Counted from the stretch's first letter, positions 7,703 to 55,461 are shown. The stretch: 64,000 bases of DNA from Aulosira sp. ZfuVER01 (GCA_034530615.2 JAVRCV020000039.1:53863-117862); one strand, 5' to 3'. Translations and numbers: made by a program. Notes: generated from the sequence alone by a model not told the origin.

Positions 7703-7798
7703 CTAGTACATCACGACGTAAATCAAACGACCATTTAAAATAGAGCAAAAGCACAGAATATAATTCTTTTGCCTTTTGACTTCGCGCAGCAGTACTAG
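7703..7798. mobile_element. ~100-bp CTAGTAC...GTACTAG MITE-like repeat, copy 1
   Basis: Terminal inverted repeats. Aligns by eye with the reverse complement of 38037-38140. The terminal CTAG overlaps the vWA stop codon. Confidence 0.7.
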
Positions 7799-8415
7799 TC
7801 ATTAATGGCATTCAGCAACACTTCCGATAGGCTCATATCTTCCATCTCTTCCATTGTAATGGTATCGCAGATATCAAATTTAGCTCCAGCACTCTGGAGT
7901 TCGTCATCTAGGACTTTGAGAAAGCGTGTAGCTTGGGCATCTGTACCAACTTGAATGAAGGAAATAGCTAGTTCTTCATCGCGATCCATGTGGCGGGAAG
8001 CTTCAATAATGACTCTCATTACCGCTTTGCGATCGTCTGGTTCACCATCGGTAACAACTAAAATTGTTTCACCATTGGGCTTGGTTTTTTTAGCAGCTTT
8101 GCGTTGAAAGTAATCATCAGTTGCATGTTTTAATACGGCTGCTAAGTCAGTGGTTCCAGAGGGGTCATTTTCTCGAAAAATTTGTGAAACCTTAGCCGAA
8201 GTTACATTTTCATAACGCTTGAATTTTCCAGAAAATACATAAATAGTAATACCATCTGGGTCAAATTGTTCGCATTTGCTAGCTAGGGCTAAGGTAGATT
8301 CTTGGGCGGCTACCCATCTACTTCTACCACCTTTTTGATCTGGGGTAGCCATGCTGCCGCTTTTATCGATAATCAAGGTGTAATCACGATTTTCTAGCAT
8401 TTCTAAATTCTCCAA
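7795..8415 (-). CDS. Stand-alone vWA domain protein (paralog 3)
   Basis: MIDAS motifs IIDKSGSM, SGTT and VVTDGEP. Confidence 0.9.
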   Translation of the reverse strand: MENLEMLENRDYTLIIDKSGSMATPDQKGGRSRWVAAQESTLALASKCEQFDPDGITIYVFSGKFKRYENVTSAKVSQIFRENDPSGTTDLAAVLKHATDDYFQRKAAKKTKPNGETILVVTDGEPDDRKAVMRVIIEASRHMDRDEELAISFIQVGTDAQATRFLKVLDDELQSAGAKFDICDTITMEEMEDMSLSEVLLNAIND

Positions 8416-8444
8416 GTATTTAATAACAACTTCTAAACTCTTAA

Positions 8445-9050
8445 TTAGTCAGTTATCGCCTTGATTAATACATCGGTAAGGCTCATCTCTTCTAATTGAT
8501 CTAAAGTTATAGTGTCACAAATATCAAATTTAGCCCCAACACTTTGCAATTCATCATCGATAGCATGAAGAAACTTTGTAGCTTTGGTATCTGCACCTAC
8601 TTGAATCAGAGAAATTCTTAATTCTTGGGGGTTATCTAAACGCTGAGTAGCATTGATAATGACTTCATATACTGCTTGGCGATCGCCTGGCGCACCATCA
8701 GTGACAACTAAAATTACTTCTCCTGCTGACTTGGTTTTGCCATCTGCTTTGCGTTTAAAGTAGTTATTAATTGCGTCTTGCAGTACACCTGCTAAGTTAG
8801 TTGTATCTCCTGGTATATTTTCTGTGAAAATTTGCTTGATTTGATCTACACTGACATTATCGTAACGCTTAAATCCTTTAGCAAACAGATAAATCGTGAT
8901 TCCATCGAGGTCAAATTCTTCGCATCTAGCAGCTAAAGCAAATGTCGATTCTTGTAGTGCTGTCCATCTACTTCTACCATCCCTTTGATCTGTAGTACCC
9001 ATGCTGGCACTTTGATCGATAATTAAGGTGTAATCCCGATTTTCTAGCAT
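8445..9050 (-). CDS. Stand-alone vWA domain protein (paralog 2, most diverged)
   Basis: IIDQSASM, GDTT and VVTDGAP. Clearly paralogous to both neighbours. Confidence 0.9.
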   Translation of the reverse strand: MLENRDYTLIIDQSASMGTTDQRDGRSRWTALQESTFALAARCEEFDLDGITIYLFAKGFKRYDNVSVDQIKQIFTENIPGDTTNLAGVLQDAINNYFKRKADGKTKSAGEVILVVTDGAPGDRQAVYEVIINATQRLDNPQELRISLIQVGADTKATKFLHAIDDELQSVGAKFDICDTITLDQLEEMSLTDVLIKAITD

Positions 9051-9110
9051 TGCTAATTCCTCAAAACTTGCTCATAATTAATTAGATAAAACTAACAGAC
9101 TTAGTGAAGA

Positions 9111-9716
9111 TCAGTCAGTGATTGCATTCATCAAGACATCTGCAAGGCTCATTTCTTCTAAGTCGTCTAAAGTCACAGTATCGCAGATATCAAATTTAGC
9201 GCCTACACTTTGTAACTGATCGTCTAAAGCTTTGAGAAACTTAGTAGCCTGGGGATCGGAACCAACCTGAATAATGGAAACGCCTAATTCTTCATCTCGA
9301 TCCATTTGGCGGGTAGCATGGATAATGACTTCAAAGACGGCTTTGCGATCATCTGGTTCGCCATCGGTGATTACTAAAATTGTCTCGCCATTGGTTTTGG
9401 TTTTACCCGCTGCTTTCCGCTTAAAGTAATTATTGAGTGCGTCTTGGAGTACACCTGCTAAGTTGGTTGTACCAGCAGGATCGTTTTCTTGGAAAATCTG
9501 CGCAACTTTAGCTGATGTTACATCGTCGTAGCGTTTAAATCTCCCAGAAAATACGTAGACTGTAATCCCATCAGGATCGAATTGTTCGCACTTTCTTGCC
9601 AACGCCAGAGTGGATTCTTGGGCTATATCCCATCTAGTTCTCCCACCGGCTTGGTCAGGAGTGGACATACTACCACTCTTGTCAATAATTAATGTATAGT
9701 CACGGTCACTCATCAT
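9111..9716 (-). CDS. Stand-alone vWA domain protein (paralog 1)
   Basis: IIDKSGSM, AGTT and VITDGEP. Start moved to MMSDRDYTL (9716) to match the paralogs. Confidence 0.9.
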   Translation of the reverse strand: MMSDRDYTLIIDKSGSMSTPDQAGGRTRWDIAQESTLALARKCEQFDPDGITVYVFSGRFKRYDDVTSAKVAQIFQENDPAGTTNLAGVLQDALNNYFKRKAAGKTKTNGETILVITDGEPDDRKAVFEVIIHATRQMDRDEELGVSIIQVGSDPQATKFLKALDDQLQSVGAKFDICDTVTLDDLEEMSLADVLMNAITD

Positions 9717-9830
9717 AGTATTCCTTTGATTGTTACCCTGTGGTTCTAGTCTAACCACCGGAATCGACGTTGATATAGGTATTCTCACCCTTATTGTGAT
9801 AACTGCTACTGATTTGCTACTCAAATCAAC

Positions 9831-9866
9831 TTATTTTAATACCGTTTTCAGTATTTGATCTGCTGT
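9831..9866 (-). pseudogene. Orphan 3' tail of another Uma2-type gene
   Basis: Reads TADQILKTVLK*, starting 5 bp after the stop of the Uma2 gene, whose own end is LTAQQIFNTTS*. Confidence 0.45.
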
Positions 9867-9871
9867 TGCAA

Positions 9872-10489
9872 TTATGAAGTAGTATTAAAAATTTGTTGTG
9901 CGGTCAGGTTGAGTTCTGGGAATGCAGTAGATATAATCCGGTCATCCCCCCTAAATTGAGTAACCTGATATTCGTCATCAACTAGTTTATAAATTGATAA
10001 AGTTGGTTTTTTGGGGCTACCTATATATTTAATCCCACCTAATCCAAGGTAATCTACAATCCAATATTCAGGTATTTTAATCTCTTCATACTCACCCATT
10101 TTTTTATAATAATCATCGCGCCAGTTAGTACTAACTACTTCAACTATTAAAGGAATAGAAGTACCACGTTGAACAGTAGAATATTTAGCCCAAAGTTCTT
10201 CTGATTTTAAAGCAGGCTTATTGAGAACTAATATGTCTGGAGAATAAGTGGATTGGCTAATTGCAGATTGTACCAGCGCAGTTTTGGGAACTGAGTAAGG
10301 CAACTTTAAGCGTTTGATTTCTGAAGATATTTCAATATTTAAAAATCCCGTAACATCTTCATGCTCTCCTGTTGGCTGTGACATTTCAACTATTGCCCCA
10401 TCATGTAGCTCGTAACGTTTATTTGAATTTTCTGGAATCCATTCCAAAAATTCTTTAACTGTTATTGGTTTAAATAATGCTTGACTCAT
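9872..10489 (-). CDS. Uma2 family (DUF820) restriction-endonuclease-fold protein
   Basis: RYELHDGAIVEM, PDILV, LIVEVVSTNWRDDY and IPEYWIVD motifs. Confidence 0.92.
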   Translation of the reverse strand: MSQALFKPITVKEFLEWIPENSNKRYELHDGAIVEMSQPTGEHEDVTGFLNIEISSEIKRLKLPYSVPKTALVQSAISQSTYSPDILVLNKPALKSEELWAKYSTVQRGTSIPLIVEVVSTNWRDDYYKKMGEYEEIKIPEYWIVDYLGLGGIKYIGSPKKPTLSIYKLVDDEYQVTQFRGDDRIISTAFPELNLTAQQIFNTTS

Positions 10490-39169: not shown

Positions 39170-40048
39170 TCATCCTCGACTCCGGGGGTAACGTTGCATT
39201 AGCTCCCGCACTTGTTCGGCATGATATGAGCTTCTTGTCAATGGAGAAGAAACTACTTGCAGAAATCCCAGTTCATCACCGAAGGCTTGCCAAGCAGCAA
39301 ATTGTTCTGGGGTGATAAAGTTATCTACTTTTAAGTGTTTTTGACTGGGTTGGAGGTATTGCCCAATTGTCAAAATATCGCAATCTACAGATCGCAAGTC
39401 TTGCATAACTTGACGAACTTCGGCATCAGTTTCACCCAGTCCAACCATAATCCCGGATTTAGTGTAGATCCAAGGAGCAATTTGACGCGATCGCAAAAGT
39501 AATTCCATTGTGCGATCGTAGTTACCTTGGGGACGCACACGGCGATATAGGCGGGGTATGGTTTCTGTATTGTGGTTTAATACTTCTGGTGCAGCTTGGA
39601 TGATCATCTCCAGCGCATTCCAATTGCCGCACAAGTCAGGAATCAACACCTCAATTGTAGTTTTGGGTGAGACCGTGCGAATTGCTGCAATACAATGCTC
39701 AAACTGAGACGCACCACCATCCGGTAAATCATCTCGGTTTACAGAGGTAATCACTACATGATTGAGTTTCATGCGGCGAACAGCCTCCGCCAATCGTTCT
39801 GGTTCGGTGGGGTCTAAAGGCTTGGGCTTTTTCTCAAAATCTATATCGCAATAGGGACAGGCACGGGTACAAGCTGGCCCCATAATCAAAAACGTGGCAG
39901 TACCAGCTTGAAAACACTCACCAATATTCGGACAGGACGCTTCCTCACAAACCGTATTGAGCGCTAAATCCCGCAAAATTTCTTTAACGTTACCGACGCG
40001 CTCCCACTGAGGCGCTTTCACCCGCAACCAGTCTGGTTTAACAGTCAC
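39170..40048 (-). CDS. lipA: Lipoyl synthase
   Basis: [20 protein letters not shown] and RSSYHA motifs. Confidence 0.96.
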
Positions 40049-42433: not shown

Positions 42434-42811
42434 AGAATCGCGTATTCTTGTAGGCGTCTCAAGTCAATTTGACATGGTTGAAAACCAGACTATCATTTTA
42501 GGAGCTAAAACTACCTGGTTTCGATTAGGTATAATGCTTTGACAGCAGAGTTTTCTTGTGCATAGGCGTCGCTCACGAGATAGTTAATAATGCGATCGCT
42601 ATAAATCATTATTTTTTGTCAGGTGTCTTAGTACTGAGATTACGGCATCATATATTCATCACAATATTTCCAGCGATCGCCTGAAGGTGCGTGACGGTAA
42701 ACAACAATTTTTTTACTGTGTCTCCTCTTCTGCGTATTTTCGCCAATTCAAAAAGGCATCAGATCGTATTACATCTGCATAGGCGATGCCAAAGGCTGGT
42801 TACGCTTACGC

Positions 42812-42951
42812 CATTGCCATTTCTGATACTACAATTGCCATTTCGGACACTACAATTGCCGTTTCAGACACTACAATTGCCATTTCTGATACTACAATTG
42901 CCGTTTCTGATACTACAATTGCCATTTCTGATACTACAATTGCCGTTGTTG
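42812..42951. repeat. 21-bp tandem repeat, about 6.5 copies (ACAATTGCCRTTTCNGAYACT)
   Basis: Directly visible. Confidence 0.9.
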
Positions 42952-42975
42952 ATGTAACTCTTGAATCTGACTCAT
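42934..42975 (-). pseudogene. N-terminal stub of the partner gene (MSQIQELHQQ...), cut by the 21-bp repeat
   Basis: ATGA overlap with the upstream ORF. The frame enters the repeat after about 10 codons and stops. Confidence 0.5.
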
Positions 42976-43235
42976 TTTTCTACAATAAAAGATTGAGGTC
43001 TGCTGAATTCAACCACAATAATGTAGGCGGGAAATTTACCATCTGAAGGATTAGTTTGCTCGATCTTTTGTTTGATTCTAGCTCTAATCCTGCTATTGTC
43101 TGCTTTACGTATACCTGAAACTTCCAACCTCACTTTATTTTGAAATGGAAGTTCACCTGCTGTATCTTCGCTACCCAACCAATAGTCAAATCCAGTACCT
43201 TTGCGCGATCGCTCAATCACTATAAACTTAGTTAC
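42972..43235 (-). pseudogene. 5'-truncated conserved hypothetical gene with a PD-(D/E)xK-like motif
   Basis: VIERSRKGTGFDYWLG..RLEVSGI..AYIIVVEFS is a recognisable C-terminal half. The N-terminus of the ORF looks unrelated. Confidence 0.55.
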
Positions 43236-43292
43236 ATAAACGCACAAGCATTTCTCTAACAGCGTTGTCATCTAGCAAGCAATCTTTTTCTT

Positions 43293-44036
43293 TTATTTAC
43301 CGTTACCTGGTAGTAGAAGTGGAACAATGTCTTTCAAACCTTCAGGTAGCTTAGATAATCTCTCACTTACATTAATCATGCTGTTAGTTTTTATAGCTAT
43401 ATTTATAACTTTTCCCGCCATTTCTCTAGGTTTTTCTAACAGTTGTAACCATTTTACAAATGTTCCTCCTATCACTTCTTCACTTACTTTTGAGAGGCCG
43501 CTTGAGCTTCTGATTTGATAATTGAGAATTACGTCTTCTATTTTTCTAAGTTCATTAATGAGAAAAACCTTCGTATCTTTATCTATTTCTGCCTCCCGAA
43601 TTTCATCTTGCAAATTTCTTATTTGTTGTTGTAATTCTTCTAATTCACTCGGTAAAATCTCATAAAAACCCTTATTCTGGGCTATAATTAAATCTCCACA
43701 AGCATCTATTAAATCTAAAGTCTCTTCTGCTATTTGTCCTTTAATATCTGCCCAATTTGCATTCAGCAGTGGGCTATTTAGAAGAACTATTTGTATTTTA
43801 TTTAGCGGCTTTAAAAATTTTTCTTTATTAGAAATATCTAAGCTATCAATATCATTCCTTAAATTATTAAATAATTCTATTAAATATCCTATTTTTATAG
43901 ATATATCAGCCTGATTAGAAGGGTCTGCTTCCAGCACTTTAGCCCATACTTGCACTATATGTATCTTTCCATCTTCATTCCATGCCTTTTTAAGGATACT
44001 GTAAATTTTTTTACCTGAACTTGTGGATTGCAGCAT
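43293..44036 (-). CDS. Hypothetical AT-rich helical protein
   Basis: 247-aa ORF in the accessory hotspot, with no HIP1 inside it. Confidence 0.75.
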   Translation of the reverse strand: MLQSTSSGKKIYSILKKAWNEDGKIHIVQVWAKVLEADPSNQADISIKIGYLIELFNNLRNDIDSLDISNKEKFLKPLNKIQIVLLNSPLLNANWADIKGQIAEETLDLIDACGDLIIAQNKGFYEILPSELEELQQQIRNLQDEIREAEIDKDTKVFLINELRKIEDVILNYQIRSSSGLSKVSEEVIGGTFVKWLQLLEKPREMAGKVINIAIKTNSMINVSERLSKLPEGLKDIVPLLLPGNGK

Positions 44037-44089
44037 ATAAATAAAGAGCTATTCTAATTTTACTTAGTTGTTATTCTAACTAATTTTTT

Positions 44090-44149
44090 GGCGTTACTGA
44101 AGTATGGGATGATTTTAACAGTTAATTCATCCCGCATTTATGCAACGCC
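44090..44149. mobile_element. 60-bp miniature element with an 8-bp target-site duplication
   Basis: Ends GGCGTTAC..GCAACGCC, flanked by AATTTTTT at 44082-44089 and 44150-44157. Confidence 0.75.
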
Positions 44150-44208
44150 AATTTTTTAAAGGTTCTTTCACATTATTGTTATGGTAGTATGCTCGCTGAC
44201 AATTAGTA

Positions 44209-44386
44209 CTAATTCTCCTCCAATATCAATGTAGACTCAGCCGCACGCCCAAATTCTTCGGGTGCATATTGCAAATGTGCTTCGCACCAGGCCAGAGGAA
44301 TTTACCGGGAGTAACGGAACGTACTAAATAATGCAGGCTATAAACTCCTGGTTCGAGGTGGTCGGCGTAGGCGATAATGCGATCGC
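44209..44386 (-). pseudogene. Displaced copy of the alpha-2-macroglobulin 3' end (HIP1 to stop)
   Basis: Aligns with 45531-45712, with a 1-bp deletion near 44283. Similarity ends at GCGATCGC 44379-44386. Confidence 0.92.
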
Positions 44387-44540
44387 TATTTGTGATTTTT
44401 AGAGCAATAGTGCGATCGCTTTTCTAATTTATTTTGAACTGACTAAAAGCTATATATCAAGTGCATCTAAGTTACTTTACCAAAGCAAAAGTTAAAATTA
44501 GCCTAAAATATCGATAATATGCCCTTCGCACCTAATTTAA

Positions 44541-45356
44541 TTGATGAGCAAGCATACTAGACAAGACTTCTTAGGATTACTGAAAGACCAGGATAATGAT
44601 GTGCGTCGCAGGGCTGCCGAAGCGTTAGGTGAGTTAGGCAATGCTTCCGAGCCAGTATTGCAAGGGCTACTAGCACTACTCAAAGACCAGGATAATGATG
44701 TGCGTAGCAGCGTTGCCTACGTGTTAGTTAAGTTAGGCAATGCTTCTGGGCCAGTATTGCAAGGTCTACTAGGACTGCTTAAAGACCAGGATAATGATGT
44801 GCGTCGCAGGGCTGCCTACGTGTTAGGTAATTTAGGCAATGCTTCTGAGCCAGTATTACAAGGGCTACTAGGACTGCTTAAAGACCAGGATAATGATGTG
44901 CGTGGCAGCGCTGCCAATGCGTTAGGTAAGTTAGGTAATGCTTCCGAGCCAGTATTGCAAGGGCTACTAGCACTACTTAAAGACCAGGATCAATATGTGC
45001 GTAGCAACGCTGCCGAAGCGTTAGGTAAGTTAGGCAATGCTTCCGAACCAGTATTGCAAGGGCTACTAGCACTACTTAAAGACCAAGATCAATATGTGCG
45101 TGCCAATGCTGCCTGCGTTTTAGGTAAATTAGGCAATGCTTTCGAGCCAGTATTGCAAGGGCTACTAGCACTACTTAAAGACCAAGATAATGATGTGCGT
45201 GGCATCGCTACCGAAGTGTTAGGTAAGTTAGGCAATGCTTCCGAGCCAGTATTGCAAGGGCTACTAGCACTACTTAAAGACCAAGATAATGATGTGCGTA
45301 GCAGCGCTGCCTACTTGTTAGGTAAGTTAGGCAATGCTTCCGAGTCATCCACTTAG
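44541..45356 (+). CDS. HEAT/PBS-lyase-like repeat protein, 8 x 33 aa (99-bp units), possibly a fragment
   Basis: Unit LLKDQDxxVRxxAAxxLGxLGNASEPVLQGLLA. The stop codon is supplied by the MITE end at 45353. Confidence 0.8.
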   Translation: MMSKHTRQDFLGLLKDQDNDVRRRAAEALGELGNASEPVLQGLLALLKDQDNDVRSSVAYVLVKLGNASGPVLQGLLGLLKDQDNDVRRRAAYVLGNLGNASEPVLQGLLGLLKDQDNDVRGSAANALGKLGNASEPVLQGLLALLKDQDQYVRSNAAEALGKLGNASEPVLQGLLALLKDQDQYVRANAACVLGKLGNAFEPVLQGLLALLKDQDNDVRGIATEVLGKLGNASEPVLQGLLALLKDQDNDVRSSAAYLLGKLGNASESST

Positions 45357-45460
45357 CACCGTTGCGCGAAATTCAAAATTTAAAATGACGCTCTCTACGA
45401 GACGCTGCGCTAACAAAATTTAAAATGAAGACAGCGTAAGCGTTTCGTTGATTTAGAAAA
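45353..45460. mobile_element. Truncated copy 3 of the CTAGTAC-type MITE with a nested small repeat
   Basis: TTAGCACCGTTGCGCGAAATTCAAAAT resembles the 38037 end. GACGCTCTCTACGAGACGCTGCGCTAAC is nested inside. Confidence 0.55.
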
Positions 45461-45461
45461 C

Positions 45462-45522
45462 AAGTAATGCAAGCTATAAACTCCTGGATCGAGGTGGTAG
45501 GCATAGGCGATAATGCGATCGC
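45462..45522 (-). pseudogene. Second, partial displaced copy of the alpha-2-macroglobulin 3' segment
   Basis: Aligns with 45652-45712 and ends at GCGATCGC 45515-45522, 8 bp from the live gene's stop. Confidence 0.88.
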
Positions 45523-45530
45523 TTTTTTAG

Positions 45531-48500
45531 CTAATTTTTCTCCTCTAGTATCAATGTAGACTCAGCCGCACGCCCAAATTCTTCGGGTGCATATTGCAAA
45601 TGTGCTTCCGCACCAGGCCAGAGGAATTTACCGGGAGTAACCGAACGTACTAAGTAATGTAGGCTATAAACTCCTGGTCCGAGATGGTCAGCGTAGGCGA
45701 TAATGCGATCGCGGTAAATATTTTTAAACCCAAGTTGCCAACTATCGGCTTTTGCTTGCAATGCGGCTGTGGTCGTTTGGAAACTTGCATCTACTGCTTC
45801 TAATCCTGCTGGTAAGGGATCTGTAATTACTACATGATCCACAGGATGGTCGCTAATAATTTCTAAACCAATATCAAATACTTGTCCTGGTGTTAAAGTC
45901 AAGGGTTTATCAGAAGCGTAAAGTCCTAATTTTTGCAGAACTTTTTCTTCACCAACTTTCTGGATTTCTCTTGTGACTCGTAAACCGTTAAACTTTCCTG
46001 GTTGATTTCCTTGCAAGCGATAATTATACGCAACCAGATAATGTAATTTACCTGTACCTGATTTCCGTAATACTAAATCGTGACGACCACGAGGTAATTT
46101 ATCCATTGGTACGTTTAGCTGCAAGCTAGGATTGCTGTAGCCTTCAAAACGATTTTCTCCTAACTTTTTCCCAGCTAATTGTACGAAGGTAACAAAATTA
46201 GGTGGTGTGGGTTGTAGTTGACTATATTCTACTAAAGCTGTGAGTGCTTGGGCGTTGTTATAACTAGTTTGCCATGTGCCATCTCTTCGTTGTGCTAGCA
46301 AACTTTGAAATAATCTATCTACTACTTCGGGTTTAGCTTTGTTAGCAATAAATAACCGTAAAGCTTGCGCTTGCGCTGTTGTCGAAGAACTCATCCATCC
46401 CCAACTCTGAGGTAAACTAATAACTGCTGTGCGACCAGTTTCATAAATATTTTGTTGTAACTGGTTCAGCATGGTTTGGGATTCGTCTTGCCATTCAGGG
46501 AATTGAGATAAATATCGCGCTAGTTTGATTTGATTGACTAAATCAAAGTTATTGCGCTGTTGGTAAATATCTGCTAAGAAACTATTGCGTTTATCACCCA
46601 GTTCTGCTAATGCTATCAAGGCATTTAGTTGCAGTTGATTTTTACAAAGTTGCTGTTTGCAAAAATCATATTGTCCGGGGTTAGCGAGGACTTTTTGCAA
46701 ATAACCCTTGAGGCGTGAAAGCATTCCCGAATTAATTAAACTGGGGAAGGCTTGATTCGCCTTAGCTAAAGATTCTGCTGCGTAGGAAGAAATCCAAGGA
46801 TCGGATTTTTCTTGTTCGGGGTAAGAAGCAAAACCACCATCGGCTACTTGGAGTTTTTGCAGTTGTTCAGTTGCTAGATTTGCTTGTTGGCTGGTGTTGA
46901 ATTCTGCAAATGTCTGTGCATATTTTTGGGAAAGTGTTTGCAAATTCGCCGCAATTATTAATTGACTGGCTGCTGGTTCGGCGAATGGTAATTCGTTATC
47001 GGCTAAAACTTTTTTGGCTGGTGCTTTAATTTCTGGTACTAGAGTACTCGCTAGTTGAATATCTAAGCCTCCCGCATCTGAGAAGGTATTTTTATCAACA
47101 TTTACAAGAATCTTCGCTTGCTTTTCAGTGATTCCTGTTTCCACAACTTGTTCGGTAATTTCCAGCGGCTTAACTTCTAAAGGTACTTCAAAAGCATCGG
47201 CTGTGTTATTTAACTGGGTGGTAAAGCGAACTTTCCCAACTCCTACATTCTCCGCCACCATAGGAAAGCGATAAGCCTGGGTAACGGTTTCGGCTTTGGT
47301 TTGTAAAGCAGCGCTTGTGGGGTTTTTATCAGCAAATTTTACTGTACCGCTAAGTTCGCCGTTAATTGAGAGATTTCCGGTATTTCCAGTGTTGTTGGTG
47401 ACTGATAAACCAGCGAGAATGCGATCGCCTGGACGGGCAAATTGTGGCAGGATGGCATTGGTTAGCAGTGGTTTGGTGGTAATGAATGTGTTGTCACCAT
47501 TGCCAAAGCGCAGATTTCCATCGGTAGTTACAGCCATGACTCGCCAGGTGGTTAAGTCATCGGGGAGTTTAAATGTTATCTGTGCTTTACCGCTAGCATC
47601 TGTCACCACAGAACCATTGTAGTAAGCTAAGGCTTGAAAATCTGTGCGGACGCGGGTATTAGCTGCGCCAGATGAAAAGCCACCGCCGTAACCCCAGCCT
47701 TTGGGTTTGGGGATATCTTGAGGTTGAATGACGACATCGGGACGGTTATCACTGAAACGAGTTGCGATCGCTTGTTCGGCGTATACTGTATTTACCAAAT
47801 CCGGCGGACGATAGCCAGATAGTTGCAATACCGCTTCATTCACCACCATGACTGTAAATTGTCCTTGGGTGGGGATATCTTGATTATCTGTGAGTTCTAG
47901 TTGTACGGTTTCCTCTGCACCAGGTTCGAGTGATGCTTGTAATGGCTTAACTTGCACTTTTAAATATTTATTCTGCAAGTTGACTTTAAAAGGTGCAAAG
48001 CCAATTTTGACTAATTTATCTAAACTTCCCGGTTCCACTTCATTCAGTGGTGCGCCTTGTCTGACTAACACAGCTTGTACTGCTGCATTGGGTAACATTT
48101 CTGGCGTAATTTCAAACTGAATTTGGGGTGCGCCTCCCTTGACTTTGATAGTTTGTTGATAGAGAGGTTTGTCTTTAATGACTGCAAAATATAATTCTGC
48201 TTCTGGATAGGGAGATTGAATTAATGCGGTGGCAATTTCACCAGCTTGAAATTCTTTTTTATCTAGTTTAACTTCTAGCCGGTCTTCTTCTGGAGAACCC
48301 CAGAATACTTGATTGTCTCCTGTCACCCAAATTTGTAAATCTGTGGCGCTTAATTCATCTTTTGTATCGCTAAAATTCGCTCTAATTCTGTAGGAACCTG
48401 ATTCTTTTGGTGTTAAGGTTACTGATTGGGGCTTATCAGCAGATGTAACTTCTGCTTGTCCCACTGTCTTATATTCGACTTGATTTTTTGGTGTGCGGCT

Positions 48501-51248
48501 ACCTTCTACTACCTTGGTGACACTACTATATTTTATTTGTTGTAATTCCAAACGCAGCCGTTGACCTGTGATAGGTTTTCCTGTAGGGTCAGTAACAATG
48601 GTTTCAAGAGAAAAGGGTTTGCCAGCATCAGCAACAAAATTACTTTTTAACCCAATCAGACGATTACTAGGTAAAGCTGTAAAACTTTGCGAATTCGCCA
48701 CAGATAAATTAGACACATCTGCAACTTGCACATCTACCCGATAAGTCATTGGGTATGGTAAATCCTTCGCTACCGTCAGACTTTGTTCGCTTTTACCGTT
48801 CTCATCTAATTTAGAGTTTGCCTGCAAGACATCGCTAGTTAAAGTTGGGCTTTCTTCCGGCCAAAACCATTGTCTACCAAAGCTAAATTCTTCCCAACCT
48901 TTAGGAATAAAATTAGCCTGCTGGCGCGTAACAAAGTATTTGGCTTCTCCTCCTTGTACAGGCGCACCAAATAGATAATTACTAGCAGCTTTAGCCTCAA
49001 CTTTCTCCCCAATTAAGGCAAATTCTTTATCTAAGTTGAGTTCGACTTTAAAGTTGGGTGGTTTAAATTCAGCTACTCGGAACTCTCCCGAAATTTCTTG
49101 TCCGCTTTTACCTTTAGCCTCGATTGTATAGTAGCCTAAACGTTGAGTTTTATTTATGGGTAACTCTAGGGAAAAAGTACCAAACTCGTTGGTTGTCTTT
49201 GTGCCTAAATTAGTTCTTTGCCCATCAGGATTAACTAGAGTTAATTGGTAAATAGCATTTTTATCTTGCTGAATTGTACCGTTTTGTAAGTAATCGGCAA
49301 AGCCAGTTAACCAAGCTTTTTCTCCTGGTTGATATAATTGCCTATCTGAGAATATCACTCCCCGTGATTCTGGTTTCCCTTCTTGCCAACCTGTATCAAT
49401 ACCATAACCATAGGCACCGCTATATTCTTCTGTGCGGGTAAATGCCCAATCTTGATTTTCACGGGCAATTATTAGCAATTCTGGTGCTTTGGCAAATCTT
49501 TGAGTACCAGGAAAACATTGCTGTAAATCTTCACGTTTAATGCTTAAATTACCACTATCATCAGTTTTCCCAGTTGTGCAAGGTGAAGCTAGCGAACGAG
49601 ATTTGTCGTTTAATTTTGATTGATAAATTTCTACAGTCGCAGCTTTCACAGGCGAACCATCGCTAAGATGATGCACCCGAATTAAGCCGGAATCAGGAAA
49701 CCACTGAGAAAATACACCCAAATTTGTTAATTGTACTAAGCCGTAAGTTGTGGGTTCACGCCAAAGTTCTTTACCATTTTCTTGATATTTATTAGTACGT
49801 GCTTGCACTCCATAAGCTAACATCCCTGTTGGAGAAGATAGCTTTTCTCTCAGAGGAATACTGATATCAACTGATTGATTTTTCTTCCCTGTCACCGGGA
49901 AACTTTGCCATTCAACTGGTTGAGATAAGAAATTATTCGCATAATTATTGTAAACCAAATCTGTGGGTTGAATTAGTTTATAAGCGGCTTTGTACTTCGC
50001 CTCTGGCAGATTTATTGTATTAATATTTAGCTGTAAATCCTTACCTGAAGGGAAAATATTTAAATCTGAGGGAACCCAAATATCCCCAGCTAAATCACCG
50101 GTTTCATATTTAACTGTGACAGGTTTACCCAAAGTCTGTCCAAATTTATCTTTGAGATTTGCACCAAGAGTAATGTTATAAGTAGTGTCTGGTGCTAATG
50201 CATAAGGATTAATGCTGACAACCCTATCTTCGTCACCAATTTGGAAAAGTCTCGGAATATCTTTTGGTTCAGGATTAATTTTAATATTTTCTCTAGCAGA
50301 ATCTGCTACTAAGATGTTATTAAATTCTAACTGCGGGCTACCTTGAACAAATCTCCCATAGGTTCCACCTGCATCTGGTTGTCCATATAAATTAATTCCC
50401 TGAAATGCTAAAGGTGAATAGGTTGCTAATTTACTAGCAAATTCTTTATCGCTAGGTAAATTACCATAAGCAGGACGGATACCAGGCGCAAAATTTAAGC
50501 GATAACGAGTTGCTTGTGCAAGAGTTTGCTGGGGAATAAGCTGATAAATCCAGTTTTTTACTGAAGGGTCAAATTTTTCTAAGGGATCTTCGTTTTCTAT
50601 GGGTTTATCTTCTTTAGCTAATTCAACTTTGAATCCAATACCTTGATTTTTACCTTCAGGTACTAACTGTAAATGTTCTTCAACTGAAGCTGTATCTAGT
50701 TCTACATTGGAGGTAAATTGTAATTTAGGCTGCAAATCAATTGGTTGAATATCAGCCTTTTCCATCGGATTTACGCCAGGTAAATTAGTTAGCTTAATCG
50801 GTTGAGTATTAAAAGTCCAAGCTAAATCTTTATCTAAGCGATGATTTTTTAGATCGGCTAAACCAGATTTTAAGGTTACTTGAAATCTGGTAGCTTGTGG
50901 TAATGCTTTATCTGCTTGAAATCCCACCATGCGCGGTGTTAAAAAGCGAAATCTACCGGATAAAAGTGGTACAAGTTCAAATTTTTGCAGTAAGTTTTGC
51001 TGTTCTGGGCTATCCAGACTTTCAACTGGGATTAAAGCTTCTTTAAATCGGATGCGAATTTGATTGAGAGGTTTCGCATCACCAATAGGACTAATTTGTT
51101 CAATCCAATCTGGTAATTTGGGTGGGGACAGAGGCGCAACTGTTGGTAATTGTTCTTTACCTGAGCCAATTCCAAAAAAATTACAACCTGCTATTCCTAG
51201 GATAAGTGTTAGGGTAAGTAAGAAGTTAATTAAAATTTTAATTATCAT
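45531..51248 (-). CDS. Bacterial alpha-2-macroglobulin family lipoprotein
   Basis: Lipobox IAGC, FSDRQLYQPGE, FRVAEFKPP, LPDDLTTWRVMA and DPLPAGLE motifs, with pbpC nearby. No CxEQ thioester motif seen (FAEP at the probable equivalent site). Confidence 0.93.
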   Translation of the reverse strand: MIIKILINFLLTLTLILGIAGCNFFGIGSGKEQLPTVAPLSPPKLPDWIEQISPIGDAKPLNQIRIRFKEALIPVESLDSPEQQNLLQKFELVPLLSGRFRFLTPRMVGFQADKALPQATRFQVTLKSGLADLKNHRLDKDLAWTFNTQPIKLTNLPGVNPMEKADIQPIDLQPKLQFTSNVELDTASVEEHLQLVPEGKNQGIGFKVELAKEDKPIENEDPLEKFDPSVKNWIYQLIPQQTLAQATRYRLNFAPGIRPAYGNLPSDKEFASKLATYSPLAFQGINLYGQPDAGGTYGRFVQGSPQLEFNNILVADSARENIKINPEPKDIPRLFQIGDEDRVVSINPYALAPDTTYNITLGANLKDKFGQTLGKPVTVKYETGDLAGDIWVPSDLNIFPSGKDLQLNINTINLPEAKYKAAYKLIQPTDLVYNNYANNFLSQPVEWQSFPVTGKKNQSVDISIPLREKLSSPTGMLAYGVQARTNKYQENGKELWREPTTYGLVQLTNLGVFSQWFPDSGLIRVHHLSDGSPVKAATVEIYQSKLNDKSRSLASPCTTGKTDDSGNLSIKREDLQQCFPGTQRFAKAPELLIIARENQDWAFTRTEEYSGAYGYGIDTGWQEGKPESRGVIFSDRQLYQPGEKAWLTGFADYLQNGTIQQDKNAIYQLTLVNPDGQRTNLGTKTTNEFGTFSLELPINKTQRLGYYTIEAKGKSGQEISGEFRVAEFKPPNFKVELNLDKEFALIGEKVEAKAASNYLFGAPVQGGEAKYFVTRQQANFIPKGWEEFSFGRQWFWPEESPTLTSDVLQANSKLDENGKSEQSLTVAKDLPYPMTYRVDVQVADVSNLSVANSQSFTALPSNRLIGLKSNFVADAGKPFSLETIVTDPTGKPITGQRLRLELQQIKYSSVTKVVEGSRTPKNQVEYKTVGQAEVTSADKPQSVTLTPKESGSYRIRANFSDTKDELSATDLQIWVTGDNQVFWGSPEEDRLEVKLDKKEFQAGEIATALIQSPYPEAELYFAVIKDKPLYQQTIKVKGGAPQIQFEITPEMLPNAAVQAVLVRQGAPLNEVEPGSLDKLVKIGFAPFKVNLQNKYLKVQVKPLQASLEPGAEETVQLELTDNQDIPTQGQFTVMVVNEAVLQLSGYRPPDLVNTVYAEQAIATRFSDNRPDVVIQPQDIPKPKGWGYGGGFSSGAANTRVRTDFQALAYYNGSVVTDASGKAQITFKLPDDLTTWRVMAVTTDGNLRFGNGDNTFITTKPLLTNAILPQFARPGDRILAGLSVTNNTGNTGNLSINGELSGTVKFADKNPTSAALQTKAETVTQAYRFPMVAENVGVGKVRFTTQLNNTADAFEVPLEVKPLEITEQVVETGITEKQAKILVNVDKNTFSDAGGLDIQLASTLVPEIKAPAKKVLADNELPFAEPAASQLIIAANLQTLSQKYAQTFAEFNTSQQANLATEQLQKLQVADGGFASYPEQEKSDPWISSYAAESLAKANQAFPSLINSGMLSRLKGYLQKVLANPGQYDFCKQQLCKNQLQLNALIALAELGDKRNSFLADIYQQRNNFDLVNQIKLARYLSQFPEWQDESQTMLNQLQQNIYETGRTAVISLPQSWGWMSSSTTAQAQALRLFIANKAKPEVVDRLFQSLLAQRRDGTWQTSYNNAQALTALVEYSQLQPTPPNFVTFVQLAGKKLGENRFEGYSNPSLQLNVPMDKLPRGRHDLVLRKSGTGKLHYLVAYNYRLQGNQPGKFNGLRVTREIQKVGEEKVLQKLGLYASDKPLTLTPGQVFDIGLEIISDHPVDHVVITDPLPAGLEAVDASFQTTTAALQAKADSWQLGFKNIYRDRIIAYADHLGPGVYSLHYLVRSVTPGKFLWPGAEAHLQYAPEEFGRAAESTLILEEKN

Positions 51249-51741: not shown

Positions 51742-52993
51742 ATGGCTGACTTATTAGGTATGAAAATTGCTCATAAACTGGTTGGAAGCTTTGTTGGTGT
51801 TTCCTTTTTAACGAGTATTGTTGGTGTGGTGGCGATCGCGCAATGCCAAAAAATAGCTGAAAGTTTGGCGATCGCAGAAGCTGAAAACGTTGCCCAAGTG
51901 ATTGCTATTTCAACTACTCGCCATTCTGACGATCAAAAATTTATTTCTGTTGAACCTTCTGAGGCAATGCAAAACTACATCATGCTGCTGCATAAGTTGC
52001 AACAGCGGGATATTGAGGTGGTCAATCGACAGAAAGTGATTATAGCAGATGCTGTGCCCGAAGATATTGGAACTATTCTTGAGCATGACCAAGGCAATGA
52101 AGTTCAGCAAACAATGCAGGATGGAAAGGCTAGAACTTTTTTGGAAAAGAGTGACGATTATCCCCAAGGAATTAAATTAATTGTTGTCCCCTGGAAAACC
52201 AATCAAAATCAGATTAGTGGTGCAGTTATTTTAGAATGGTCATCGCTATTTGATGAGGCAATCGCCCAAGCTAAACCCACAATGGTGTTGATTGCTATAA
52301 CCAGTTTAGGTTGTGTGATGTTGGCATTGATTCTCGGGTTGCAAATTTCTAGTAGCATATTTTCTGCATGAAGACCTGATCAAGCTGCTGCAATCCATGA
52401 AGATTGGTACTGAACGGATTCGGCAAATTGTGTTATCTCTGCGTAACTTCTCCCGCTTAGATGAAGCTGAATTTAAAGCTGTTGACCTACATGATGGCAT
52501 TGACAATACACTACTGATTTTAAAACATCGCCTCCAGGCAAAACCAGAGTCTTCAGGAATTGAAGTGGTGAAAAACTACAGCAAATTACCTTTGGTTGAG
52601 TGTTATCCTGGACAACTCAATCAGGTATTTATAAACTTACTGGCGAATGCAATTGATGTGCTGGAGGAATCTGCACAAAAACAGACAAAAATTGCTCAAC
52701 AAACACAGCCCAGTACAATTTGGATTTCTACTCAAGTAAAAGCTGATAATTTAGTGCAGATTGCGATCGCAGACAATGGTTTAGGGATAAATGAAAAAGT
52801 GCGATCGCGCATTTTTGATCCCTTCTTTACTACCAAACCAATCGGTCAAGGTACAGGCTTAGGCTTATCCATCAGCTACAAAATCATCACAGAAAAGCAT
52901 CATGGCAAGATTTGGTGTGATTCTACAGCAGGAGAGGGCACCAAATTTGTGATTGAAATCCCAGTTCATCAACCTAAACTCATGGCGAGTTGA
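51742..52993 (+). pseudogene. Sensor histidine kinase split by an internal deletion
   Basis: 51742-52371 encodes TM-sensor-TM. In another frame from about 52361 the sequence reads FLHEDLIKLLQSMKIGTERIRQIV..., followed by a HATPase (NAID, DNGLG, FFTTK, GTGLGL). HAMP and H-box are absent. Confidence 0.8.
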
Positions 52994-53082: not shown

Positions 53083-55461
53083 ATGCAACTAACTTCACGT
53101 TGGCCGATCCAAATTATGCAAAAAGTTTGGCGGGGGTTGAATCGCAGCAAAAAAGGTAAAGTGATTTTAGCTTTGCTGTTGATGTGCTTGGCGGTGCGCT
53201 TAATGCCATATTTTGCGCCTGTTCGCGCTACAGATATTCAGCAAAGTCAGCTAGCGATGCAATTTAGCGATCGCAATGGGCTACCCTTAGGAACTATACT
53301 CACCCGCGATCGCGAACATACAGCAGTAGTCCCGTTAGATCGAGTCTCCCCCCAATTTATTCAGGCGATTTTAGCTGCTGAAGATGGTAGCTTCTATGAT
53401 CATGGGGCGTTGGATTTAAAAGCAGTTGTCCGCGCTATGAAAGAAGCGATTCACGCGAAAAAAGTTGTCTCTGGTGCTTCGACAATTACTATGCAATTGT
53501 CGCGGATGTTAGATCCCGTTCCTCGCAATCTTGGGGGTAAGCTGCGGGAGATTTGGTTAGCTTGGCGGTTAACTGCTGGGATGAATAAGGATGAAATTCT
53601 CGCGGCTTATGTTAATCGTTTACCAATGGGGGGAAATATTTATGGTGTGGAAGCAGCAGCCCGTACTTATTTTTCTATCCCAGCCAGCGATTTGAATCTG
53701 GCTCAAGCTAGTCTGTTAGCAGCTATCCCTAATAATCCCACTTATTTTGACCCTTTAGAGCATTGGGAACGGTTAAAGCAGCGTCAAAAATACGTTCTCA
53801 AGCAGATGGTACAGGATAGCTACATTACTTCCTCCTTAGCAGAACACGCAGCTACAGAAAAAGTTGTATTTCAATCTCGTCAACGAGGAATTATTGCTGC
53901 ACCTCACTTTTTATTTTGGTTAGCGAGTCAGCAAAGTACTCCAACAGAGGAAGGGGAGGGAATAATCTGCACGACAATCAATCGCCCCTTACAACAATTT
54001 GTAGAAGCACAGGTAAAGCAGGTAATTTCTTCACTCGCGCCGAATAATGTCCATGATGCAGCGGCTTTGGTAATTGACAACCACACTGGGGAAGTTTTGG
54101 CTTATGTCGGTTCGCCCGATTACTTTAACGAAGCCAAACTCGGACGTAATGATGGCGTACAGGCTTTACGTCAACCAGGTTCTACCCTGAAGCCGTTTGT
54201 GTATGAATTGGCGTTAGAAAAAGGTGCAATTCGCCCAAATACTATTTTGGCTGACGTACCTGCTTACTACGCAATTCCGGGTGCGAAACTTTATAGCCCT
54301 ACAGATTATACTCAAACCTTTCTCGGCCCGGTACGGGTGCGCGTTGCTTTGGCAAATTCCCTCAATGTCCCCGCCGTTAGGGTATTAGAAAAGGTAGGCG
54401 TACCAAATTTTCTAGAATATCTGCATCAATTGGGGTTTGAACACCTCAATCAAACCCCAGAATATTATGGTTTGGGTTTAACTTTGGGTAGTGGCGAAGT
54501 CAGTCTTTGGGAATTAGCCAGGGCTTACGTGACTATGGCGCGACAAGGTGAAGCTATCTCGCTGGTTACTACTTTCTCCAATTCCTCAATCCGTCTTGGA
54601 AAGTTTGCTACGGAGGGAAACCCTCCTGGCAACTTTCCGCAAAATCCAAAATCTAAAATCCAAAATCGAACGGCTTGGCAATTAATTATTGATATGTTGA
54701 GCGATCGCCATGCCCGTGCTACCGCTTTTGGTGTAGACTCGGTATTAAATTTACCCTTTCCATCTGCGGTTAAAACTGGCACATCTTCAAATTTCCGCGA
54801 TACTTGGACAGTAGGCTTTACTAGCGATTACACCGTCGCTACCTGGGTAGGAAATTTTAGTGGCGAACCGATGCGACAGGTATCAGGAGTTACAGGAGCA
54901 GCTCCTTTGTGGAATCGGATTATGTTACATCTGCACGAGCATCAAGAACCATCTAGCTTTACCCCTCCTGAAGGTTTAGTGCAATTACCTATCTGTGCGA
55001 TATCTGGGTTAAAACCTACACCAAATTGTGCTTCAGTGGTACAGGAATATTTTTATCCAGAAGACAAAATTGCCTACGAAACTCAACAACCAAGCAACTT
55101 ACCGCCAGAATATGATGAATGGTTAGCTAAACAGCAACAATCAACTTTTAATACTAGTAATTTGCGGATTTTATCTCCTCATAATGGCGATTTATTTTTG
55201 CTGTATCCAGGGGAACAAACAACACAGAAACTAGAGTTTAAGCTAGTAGGAAAGGCAGCTGAACCTGTAGAGTGGCTATTAAATGGAGAAAAGCTAGCTA
55301 TAGATTCAGCTAATTCTTTATTTTGGTATCTGCGCCCTGGTAAATGGACATTGGAAGCCAGAAGTGGAGAAAGTAGCGATCGCGTCAACTTTCAAGTCCA
55401 GTTAGCCAGTAGAAAATCCACACGTCGCGGCTTTTCGGTTGTGAATTCCTCAGGTGGGTAA
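53083..55461 (+). CDS. pbpC: Penicillin-binding protein 1C
   Basis: Transglycosylase AAED and GASTITMQ motifs. Transpeptidase STLK, SLN and KTGTS motifs. Confidence 0.93.
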   Translation: MQLTSRWPIQIMQKVWRGLNRSKKGKVILALLLMCLAVRLMPYFAPVRATDIQQSQLAMQFSDRNGLPLGTILTRDREHTAVVPLDRVSPQFIQAILAAEDGSFYDHGALDLKAVVRAMKEAIHAKKVVSGASTITMQLSRMLDPVPRNLGGKLREIWLAWRLTAGMNKDEILAAYVNRLPMGGNIYGVEAAARTYFSIPASDLNLAQASLLAAIPNNPTYFDPLEHWERLKQRQKYVLKQMVQDSYITSSLAEHAATEKVVFQSRQRGIIAAPHFLFWLASQQSTPTEEGEGIICTTINRPLQQFVEAQVKQVISSLAPNNVHDAAALVIDNHTGEVLAYVGSPDYFNEAKLGRNDGVQALRQPGSTLKPFVYELALEKGAIRPNTILADVPAYYAIPGAKLYSPTDYTQTFLGPVRVRVALANSLNVPAVRVLEKVGVPNFLEYLHQLGFEHLNQTPEYYGLGLTLGSGEVSLWELARAYVTMARQGEAISLVTTFSNSSIRLGKFATEGNPPGNFPQNPKSKIQNRTAWQLIIDMLSDRHARATAFGVDSVLNLPFPSAVKTGTSSNFRDTWTVGFTSDYTVATWVGNFSGEPMRQVSGVTGAAPLWNRIMLHLHEHQEPSSFTPPEGLVQLPICAISGLKPTPNCASVVQEYFYPEDKIAYETQQPSNLPPEYDEWLAKQQQSTFNTSNLRILSPHNGDLFLLYPGEQTTQKLEFKLVGKAAEPVEWLLNGEKLAIDSANSLFWYLRPGKWTLEARSGESSDRVNFQVQLASRKSTRRGFSVVNSSGG
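54593..54640. repeat. 48-bp hairpin element inserted in frame in pbpC
   Basis: GGAAAGTT..GGAGGG-AAA-CCCTCC..AACTTTCC, embedded in AAAATCC heptamer repeats. Confidence 0.7.

Follow-up and report, generated by a model that had tools for sequence, protein, structure and literature searches.

Displaced 3'-end copies of an alpha-2-macroglobulin gene bounded by HIP1 in Aulosira sp. ZfuVER01 and its relatives

The studied stretch of DNA (64,000 nucleotides of Aulosira sp. ZfuVER01, GCA_034530615.2, JAVRCV020000039.1:53863-117862; further referred to as the window, whose coordinates are used throughout) contains an intact gene of a bacterial alpha-2-macroglobulin (A2M) followed by two displaced copies of its own 3'-end. 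All three tails open at the same octamer, HIP1 (for highly iterated palindrome 1; GCGATCGC), whereas the DNA on the 5' side of the octamer is unrelated in each of them. The same boundary recurs in related genomes with different 5' partners, and in the cassette arrays of these genomes recombinant junctions lie at HIP1. We give a probability of roughly 0.55 to the reading that small cassettes are gained and lost at a hot spot on the 3' side of the A2M gene, the last in-gene HIP1 being the first joint of the array, and that the cassettes linked to a tail copy enter by a homologous crossover in the gene combined with a HIP1-to-HIP1 join, which displaces the old tail downstream.

The A2M gene tail and its displaced copies

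The genome under study (G000, 8.03 Mb) was compared within a set of 15 genomes of the genus (G000–G014, including this one), with genomes of further genera (G022, G067, G073, G082, G089 and G129), and with a family-wide sample of 121 evenly drawn genomes. A displaced copy of the A2M gene tail is called a ghost, and the tail joined to the intact gene is called the live tail.

The A2M gene (45531..51248, minus strand) is an intact open reading frame (ORF) of 1905 aa with the Pfam domains bMG10, A2M_BRD, MG2, A2M, bMG5 and bMG3; its orthologues in the relatives have 74–94% identity. The in-gene HIP1 at 45705..45712 encodes R-D-R, is the last HIP1 of the gene, 174 nt ahead of the stop, and forms the left edge of every tail copy. 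It is kept at the same site in 15 of 15 genomes of the genus and in four of the further genera inspected; one genome has GCGATCGG in its place. HIP1 is frequent in this DNA, with 56 occurrences in the window versus 0.36 expected and 7724 in the genome, or 0.96 per kb.

The live tail (45531..45704, minus strand) comprises the last 57 codons and the stop (TAG at 45531-45533), or 182 nt counting HIP1 (45712 to 45531). Ghost A (44209..44378, minus strand; 44386-44209 with HIP1) is a full-length copy with its own stop and one AAA codon fewer. It is 94.9% identical to the live tail over 175 nt (blastn) and aligns to it as two ungapped blocks (94% and 97%) with a one-base offset, that is, a 1-nt deletion causing a frameshift. 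Ghost B (45462..45514, minus strand) is truncated: counting HIP1 it is 61 nt long (45522-45462), with 86.9% identity to the live tail, and the HIP1 that opens it (45515..45522) lies 8 nt past the live stop. The similarity of the tails is more than chance, and a search of the whole 8.03-Mb genome yielded no tail copy beyond these three. Ghost A is opened by the second of two HIP1 sites separated by a 25-nt spacer (44379..44419, the other HIP1 at 44412-44419), and the HEAT-repeat ORF lies between the two ghosts at 44541-45356 on the plus strand. The earlier note on this DNA, made from the sequence alone, had described these copies, their octamer boundary, the ORF and further HIP1 between them, and the peptide readings YADHLGPG (live), YADHLEPG and YAYHLDPG (copies); alignment and translation reproduced all of this.

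Misassembly of the tail layout, which the earlier note had named as fatal to its interpretation, is unlikely because each of the three junctions is bridged by public contigs. Three runs of a single study, possibly of the source sample itself, gave contigs that span the ghost A junction (44286-44612), ghost B together with the live stop (45270-45578), and, at 45612-46000, the live HIP1. In another study one run, 95–99% alike, spans 45254-45502 and 45473-45689 and carries the ghost B arrangement. Among the contigs aligned to the locus none has a joint skipping the insert, and such contigs can show presence only, not absence.

Ghost tails were found downstream of A2M in 9 of the 15 genomes of the genus. 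G000 has two; the ghosts of G001, G008, G009 and G011 are full-length, and those of G004 (123 nt), G010 (109 nt), G012 (about 43 nt) and G013 (about 20 nt) are shorter. The remaining six genomes (G002, G003, G005, G006, G007 and G014) have no ghost within 9 kb downstream of the gene. In the family-wide sample the tail is present in 69 of 121 genomes and in at least two copies in 8.

Every ghost with a surviving 5' end starts at the octamer. Within the genus this applies to both ghosts of G000 and to those of G001, G008, G009, G011, G012 and G013, while the ghosts of G004 and G010 open at GCAATCGC, following a 27-nt insert in HIP1. For the other genera, ghost starts were tested with a query including 388 nt of the gene upstream of the octamer. 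The start coincides with the first base of the octamer in G089 (two ghosts, in the first of which the octamer now reads GCTATCGC), G082 and G129, and lies 2 nt inside it in G067; G073 retains only an internal tail fragment. Octamer-started ghosts are thus confirmed in four genera beyond the genus. Further, G022, a genome of another genus that is 99% complete, has an orphan in-frame tail starting exactly at HIP1 (L043, contig C23, approximately 100168-100350). No other match to the C-terminal 599 aa of A2M was found in this genome, and the stretch upstream of the orphan tail contains no ORF of 100 aa or longer.

On its 5' side the ghost octamer is adjoined by at least eight unrelated sequences; therefore several events have taken place. 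The partner is the hicB upstream region in G008, G009, G012 and G089, a dispersed repeat after a PIN gene in G011 and G001, the middle of the cassette gene F19 in G004 and G010, and the end of the live tail itself for ghost B of G000. Another partner is an octamer with the 25-nt spacer: in G013 and G089 the order is octamer, spacer, HIP1 and a tail remnant, the first octamer being HIP1 in G013 (as possibly in G000) and the variant GCGCTCGC in G089. Private flanks are found in G082, G067, G129 and G022. The view of the tails as displaced 3' ends bounded by the in-gene HIP1, which the earlier note had formed from one genome, thus holds across genomes.

Two observations concern particular partners. 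In G001 the assembly breaks 10 nt upstream of the ghost HIP1 (contigs C28 and C118, L037/L038), and at this point, compared with G011, there is an inserted element, probably an insertion sequence present in several copies. The 25-nt spacer has no relatives elsewhere in the G000 genome. A family of HIP1-bracketed mini-elements of this kind was considered and discarded, as none was found in G000, where close HIP1 pairs number 476 versus 432 expected.

Cassette arrays and their joints

All DNA past the A2M stop lacks synteny between species, while A2M, a histidine kinase and a PbpC-type penicillin-binding protein (53083-55461, Pfam) are collinear. This block (about 45.5-58 kb) is the only part of the window collinear with five relatives; a window-wide synteny test for breakpoints at HIP1 was dropped, as there were too few breakpoints. 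The arrays of the relatives consist of small modules, mostly toxin-antitoxin: HicA/HicB, a Phd-like antitoxin with a PIN protein, a second small ORF with a PIN protein, an unnamed ORF with ParE, and HigB with a helix-turn-helix (HTH) protein. They also include two DUF488 proteins with a DuOB protein and the unnamed ORFs F10 and F19. NCBIfam gave nothing for four unnamed cassette ORFs.

Cargo lies between the tails, as the earlier note had suspected for this genome, and it differs from tail to tail: it is mostly toxin-antitoxin modules in the relatives and a shortened HEAT-repeat gene here. A tail and the cassette following it stay linked down to the last 2–4 codons, and the homology between tails ends at ...CTGGAGGAG. 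These units are arranged in different orders in different genomes, and the same combination can be live in one genome and displaced in another. The tail with hicB is live in G009 and G012 and a ghost in G011; the tail with a vapBC-like module is live in G011 and G001 and a ghost in G009, G004 and G010; the tail with the Phd-like gene is live in G002, G004 and G007 and a ghost in G001. Where both tails share a contig, the interval from live tail to ghost is about 0.2–1.3 kb; in G001 and G129 they are on different contigs. No integrase or transposase family was detected in the 44 ORFs of the window or among 38 array ORFs of 19 relatives, in line with the earlier impression that no integrase is visible.

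The flanks of 115 HIP1 sites in 16 arrays were clustered, and the junctions were rechecked by eye. Left and right flanks re-assort at the octamer across the arrays. Seven recombinant junctions lie at HIP1 with both parental arrangements present in other genomes, which supports the proposed HIP1-to-HIP1 exchange. In G011 (2962) a dispersed repeat, HIP1 and a tail are joined; in G004 (3296) the 5' part of F19 is joined through GCAATCGC-ATTATC to a tail; in G006 (2384, L026, oriented copy) the 5' part of the Phd-like gene is fused to the 3' part of the unrelated F10. The two intact parents of the G006 fusion, both HIP1-bearing, are present in other genomes, and the fusion looks like a HIP1-to-HIP1 deletion. 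In G000 (45515-45522) the end of one tail, HIP1 and another tail are joined, and the parental form is found in G013, where the same tail end and HIP1 are followed by different DNA. The other junctions are G010 3151, G009 3808 and G014 3264.

HIP1 sites were compared with control positions taken every 20 nt at more than 55 nt from any HIP1. Given that one flank is conserved elsewhere among the 16 arrays, the other flank is discontinuous at 44 of 86 HIP1 sites versus 330 of 2121 control positions; with repeated flanks and tail sites removed, the counts are 20 of 61 versus 165 of 1849 (odds ratio 5.0). Both comparisons are descriptive, sites in related genomes being not independent.

An interrupted HIP1 is found in F19. 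In L034 (G007), L033 (G004) and L029 (G010) a 27-nt insert lies between bases 3 and 4 of HIP1, giving the layout GCGATCGC, 19 nt, and then GCAATCGC, and this insert-bearing site occurs with three flank combinations. Its position matches that given in passages of PMC4390886 for SDR5, which inserts precisely between bases 3 and 4 of HIP1.

In the genome under study, the HEAT-repeat ORF (44541..45356, plus strand, probable ATG at 44544) is built from tandem 99-nt units. It corresponds to a 932-aa gene of G013 in shortened form, with the same promoter region and first 14 codons and with most of its length lost in frame. In G013 an orthologous, shorter remnant of ghost B precedes the HEAT gene, and at ghost B the two genomes are distinguished by an indel with a HIP1 site exactly at each of its two ends. 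Two dispersed repeat units of about 45 nt (45370..45458) are inserted between ghost B and the end of the HEAT gene; this repeat has dozens of matches in every genome of the genus and is missing at the same place in G013. Downstream of ghost A lies an ORF of 247 aa (43293..44036, minus strand), which has no Pfam or NCBIfam match and no homologue in the 19 other arrays. It is followed by a 3' fragment of a cassette gene of family F10 (42972..43271, minus strand) with HIP1 at 43205-43212. An Rfam scan of 43000-46500 gave nothing at E up to 0.1.

Several further features of the window were noted. A 21-nt tandem repeat of at least seven copies with a ATTGCCATTTCTGATACTACA-like unit, open on both strands, occupies 42792-42980, and repeat blocks akin to it (ORF families F03/F06) are found in many arrays of the relatives downstream of A2M. 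The histidine kinase of the collinear block is apparently split into ORFs 51742-52371 (weak Cache-like match) and 52397-52993 (HATPase_c); G003 and G013 have about 430 extra nt at the position corresponding to 52358-52361. Three successive ORFs with vWA domains followed by a putative endonuclease of the Uma2 family are located at 7795-10489.

Origin of the arrays

From the anatomy of the locus, its recurrence, the fixed octamer boundary and the recombinant HIP1 junctions with both parents, all of which are observed directly, we infer the order of events, the source of the donor and the joining of strands as follows. A donor molecule bearing a stretch of A2M, a tail and a cassette, derived perhaps from a second copy of the chromosome or from a different strain, would recombine with the resident gene. 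One crossover would be homologous and lie inside the A2M gene; the far end would be joined through pairing of its HIP1 with the resident in-gene HIP1, most simply by a short-homology (8–14 bp) illegitimate exchange. The gene would stay whole because the incoming piece brings a tail, and the resident tail would be pushed downstream as a ghost. Repeated rounds would stack ghosts, and HIP1-to-HIP1 deletions and decay would trim them later.

The substitutions in the tails appear to fit different alleles better than a fresh duplication, as the earlier note had proposed. None of the substitutions in ghost A is private, its state recurring in other species at each of the 9 differing columns; 3 states of the live tail are private to G000; ghost B shares its states at columns 20 and 35 with the clade of G001, G011 and G012. 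Five or six of the tail differences are at sites polymorphic across the genus, with low power over 175 nt. A simple tandem duplication was rejected, given the different cargo of each tail and the private substitutions (0 in ghost A versus 3 in the live tail).

A number of observations weigh against the proposed reading. The first group concerns the donor. In the tree of tails, which the earlier note had suggested as a check, the ghosts group with the live tails of their own clade; this tree (176 nt, weak support), which cannot date or order events, follows the species clades and not the cargo. The live tail has 3 private changes versus a gene-wide mean of 6.3 per 175 nt, and no signal of an imported tract was found upstream of the in-gene HIP1. 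The claim that the DNA came from relatives is therefore not supported by the clustering of the tails or by the sequence upstream of HIP1.

The second group concerns the joints. No HIP1-bearing parental form was found for the hicB-type junction, and a candidate eighth recombinant (G013 6872) was dropped, as it joins about 11 nt from HIP1. Only 52 of 693 homology-block ends in the arrays, the ends being noisy, fall at HIP1, and most lie elsewhere, e.g. those bordering the ParE cassette. When the closely related G011 and G001 were aligned over an ordinary region of 20 kb, none of 22 breakpoints was within 18 nt of HIP1. Among 104 local low-copy direct repeats of G000, about 6 end at HIP1 in both copies, with about 3.5 expected by chance, and two of these pairs belong to the A2M locus itself. 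One-sided HIP1 pairs across the genome are mostly paralogous protein-domain repeats. HIP1-mediated illegitimate recombination between cloned sequences, as given in passages of Elhai 2015, proceeds at much lower efficiency. The enrichment of breakpoints at HIP1 that the earlier note had proposed to look for was not seen in the ordinary region, and the intragenomic repeats give no clear excess. The effect of HIP1 as a joint is local, and HIP1 is at most one route among several because no such effect was seen at ordinary breakpoints.

A second case was sought among the intragenomic repeats of G000 (self-megablast and one-sided HIP1 pairs). These were mostly tandem repeats and paralogues with GAF, TPR and HEAT domains, with no clear second case among them. 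On contig C15 a 147-nt direct repeat (39632-39778 and 42523-42669, 95% identity, 2.7 kb apart) possibly represents another fossil that starts at HIP1. The left flanks of its copies are unrelated; one copy opens at GCGATCGC, the other at GCAATCGC.

The exactness of the junctions and the perfect octamer retained at most joints could also be produced by a HIP1-directed enzyme encoded elsewhere (a nuclease with rejoining of cohesive ends, or a recombinase) that cuts and rejoins the DNA and moves the cassettes site-specifically. HIP1 sites of the arrays are joints about 4–5 times more often than other positions, and the insert in F19 sits at the very position used by SDR5. Passages of Elhai 2015 cite both HIP1 site-specific recombination in PCC 7002 and the precise SDR5 insertion, and Kamoku and Nielsen suggest a Chi-like hot spot served by a putative nuclease/helicase. 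However, this analysis yielded no candidate enzyme, and the joints lack an extended motif (HIP1 followed by ATTAT ranks 49th among 5-nt flanks). HIP1 sites of the ordinary region are not breakpoints, and the joint at GCAATCGC plus ATTATC suits homology better than a strict recognition site. We consider such an enzyme possible, though doubtful.

A broader proposal is that HIP1 serves as the crossover site of a cyanobacteria-wide, integron-like cassette exchange with no linked integrase, carried out by a putative HIP1-recognising nuclease or recombinase. We regard it as unlikely; if it were true, the stacks of gene-tail fossils would form a readable, layered record of imports.

It is also conceivable that the tail was duplicated once in the distant past and that homologous recombination and gene conversion have since shuffled the cassettes, the HIP1 boundary being an inherited accident. 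Some joints do appear old and inherited: the hicB-type junction is common to G008, G009, G012 and G089, and the double octamer to G013 and G089. Grouping of the ghosts with the live tails of their clade is what gene conversion would give, and an existing ghost offers 178 nt of flanking homology for cassette swaps. Nevertheless, a single accident is insufficient because the sequences adjoining the octamer, at least eight, include those of other genera with otherwise unrelated arrays and an orphan tail without a gene. It also leaves the HIP1 joints that involve no tail (G006 2384, G009 3808 and G014 3264) unexplained, and we consider this scenario quite improbable.

Finally, the ghosts could be attL/attR-type scars of decayed integrative elements that used the A2M 3'-end as attB and brought a replacement tail, as would be suggested by direct repeats that begin at a fixed point and extend through to where a restored gene ends, but this is very unlikely given that no integrase, excisionase or transposase was found in the window and array ORFs, that the intervals are so short and contain self-contained toxin-antitoxin modules, and that other joints of the arrays lie at other HIP1 sites.

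HIP1 joints and known systems

What HIP1 does has been under debate for thirty years, and recent work points to DNA uptake and recombination in transformation. Kamoku and Nielsen report up to 7-fold more transformation with HIP1 in the homology arms, and a gain of more than 100-fold if it is methylated, and propose a Chi-like, addAB-independent role. Published recombination at HIP1, as far as it is covered by the passages citing it, includes a 352-bp smtB deletion flanked by HIP1 (Gupta 1993, cited in PMC13756078), HIP1-sited recombination of plasmids in PCC 7002 (Akiyama 1998, cited in PMC4390886) and low-frequency excision promoted by HIP1 (Robinson 1997, cited in PMC4390886). The deletion, the plasmid recombination and the transformation effect lend support to the reading proposed here. 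The exchange between octamers is common to these events of recombination and to the arrays, where HIP1-bounded deletions are also seen (G000 vs G013; G006 2384). In contrast to the laboratory deletions and plasmids, the events described here are natural insertions, tail displacements and cassette shuffling in many species. The earlier note had seen in this locus a new role for HIP1. The natural joints at HIP1 stand, but the novelty was overstated, as the HIP1-flanked deletion and the plasmid recombination were in print in 1993 and 1998. In a literature search we found no description of gene-end ghosts at HIP1, with most subscription journals outside its reach.

The closest known mechanism is homology-facilitated illegitimate recombination (HFIR) of transformable bacteria and of E. 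coli conjugation, in which, according to PMC3240628, incoming DNA is anchored homologously at one end and joined illegitimately through a short match at the other; any uptake of DNA or need for RecA would be carried over to the arrays by analogy only. In both cases the inserted DNA ends up beside a homologous anchor, and here A2M with a complete continuous tail precedes each insert. The short match is likewise present: both parents have the octamer at the crossover in the seven junctions, one of which has GCAATCGC plus ATTATC instead. Unlike in HFIR, the short match is a recurrent genome-wide palindrome and not just any microhomology, the join falls within the anchored gene so that its tail is duplicated, and the events stack into arrays.

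The locus and its counterparts in the relatives provide natural, sequence-level cases of HIP1 as the exact joint of insertions, deletions and gene fusions. Entry by a homologous crossover in the gene and a HIP1-to-HIP1 join predicts that a donor that has a single homology arm and ends in HIP1 would integrate at the nearest resident HIP1, leaving a ghost of the intervening sequence. The arrays also indicate that toxin-antitoxin cassettes can build up beside a core gene without visible mobile-element machinery.

Displaced gene ends are familiar from other systems. Integrative elements that enter at gene 3'-ends (e14 and phage 21 at icd, for example, or tRNA-gene islands) carry a replacement end. 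As in the A2M arrays, they leave direct repeats that stretch from a fixed crossover point as far as the gene end, the gene remains functional, and the displaced end persists with synonymous differences. The arrays differ from them in that no integrase was found, the inserts are of 0.2–1.3 kb, several small cassettes are present, and the crossover is at a ubiquitous octamer. In the rhs and cdiA systems orphan C-terminal modules lie downstream of the gene, and the displaced ends encode different toxin domains with immunity genes. Serial displacement of 3'-ends, with the old ends stacked and small genes between them, is common to those systems and to the A2M locus, whereas here all tails code for one and the same A2M C-terminus, with cargo that has no relation to A2M. 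Integron arrays have a neighbouring intI gene, attC sites and promoterless cassettes in a single orientation; here no integrase was found and the joints are plain octamers, and hicAB and the HEAT gene are on the opposite strand with upstream regions of their own. The locus is a natural variant of the known HIP1-associated and one-sided-homology recombination, not a new category.

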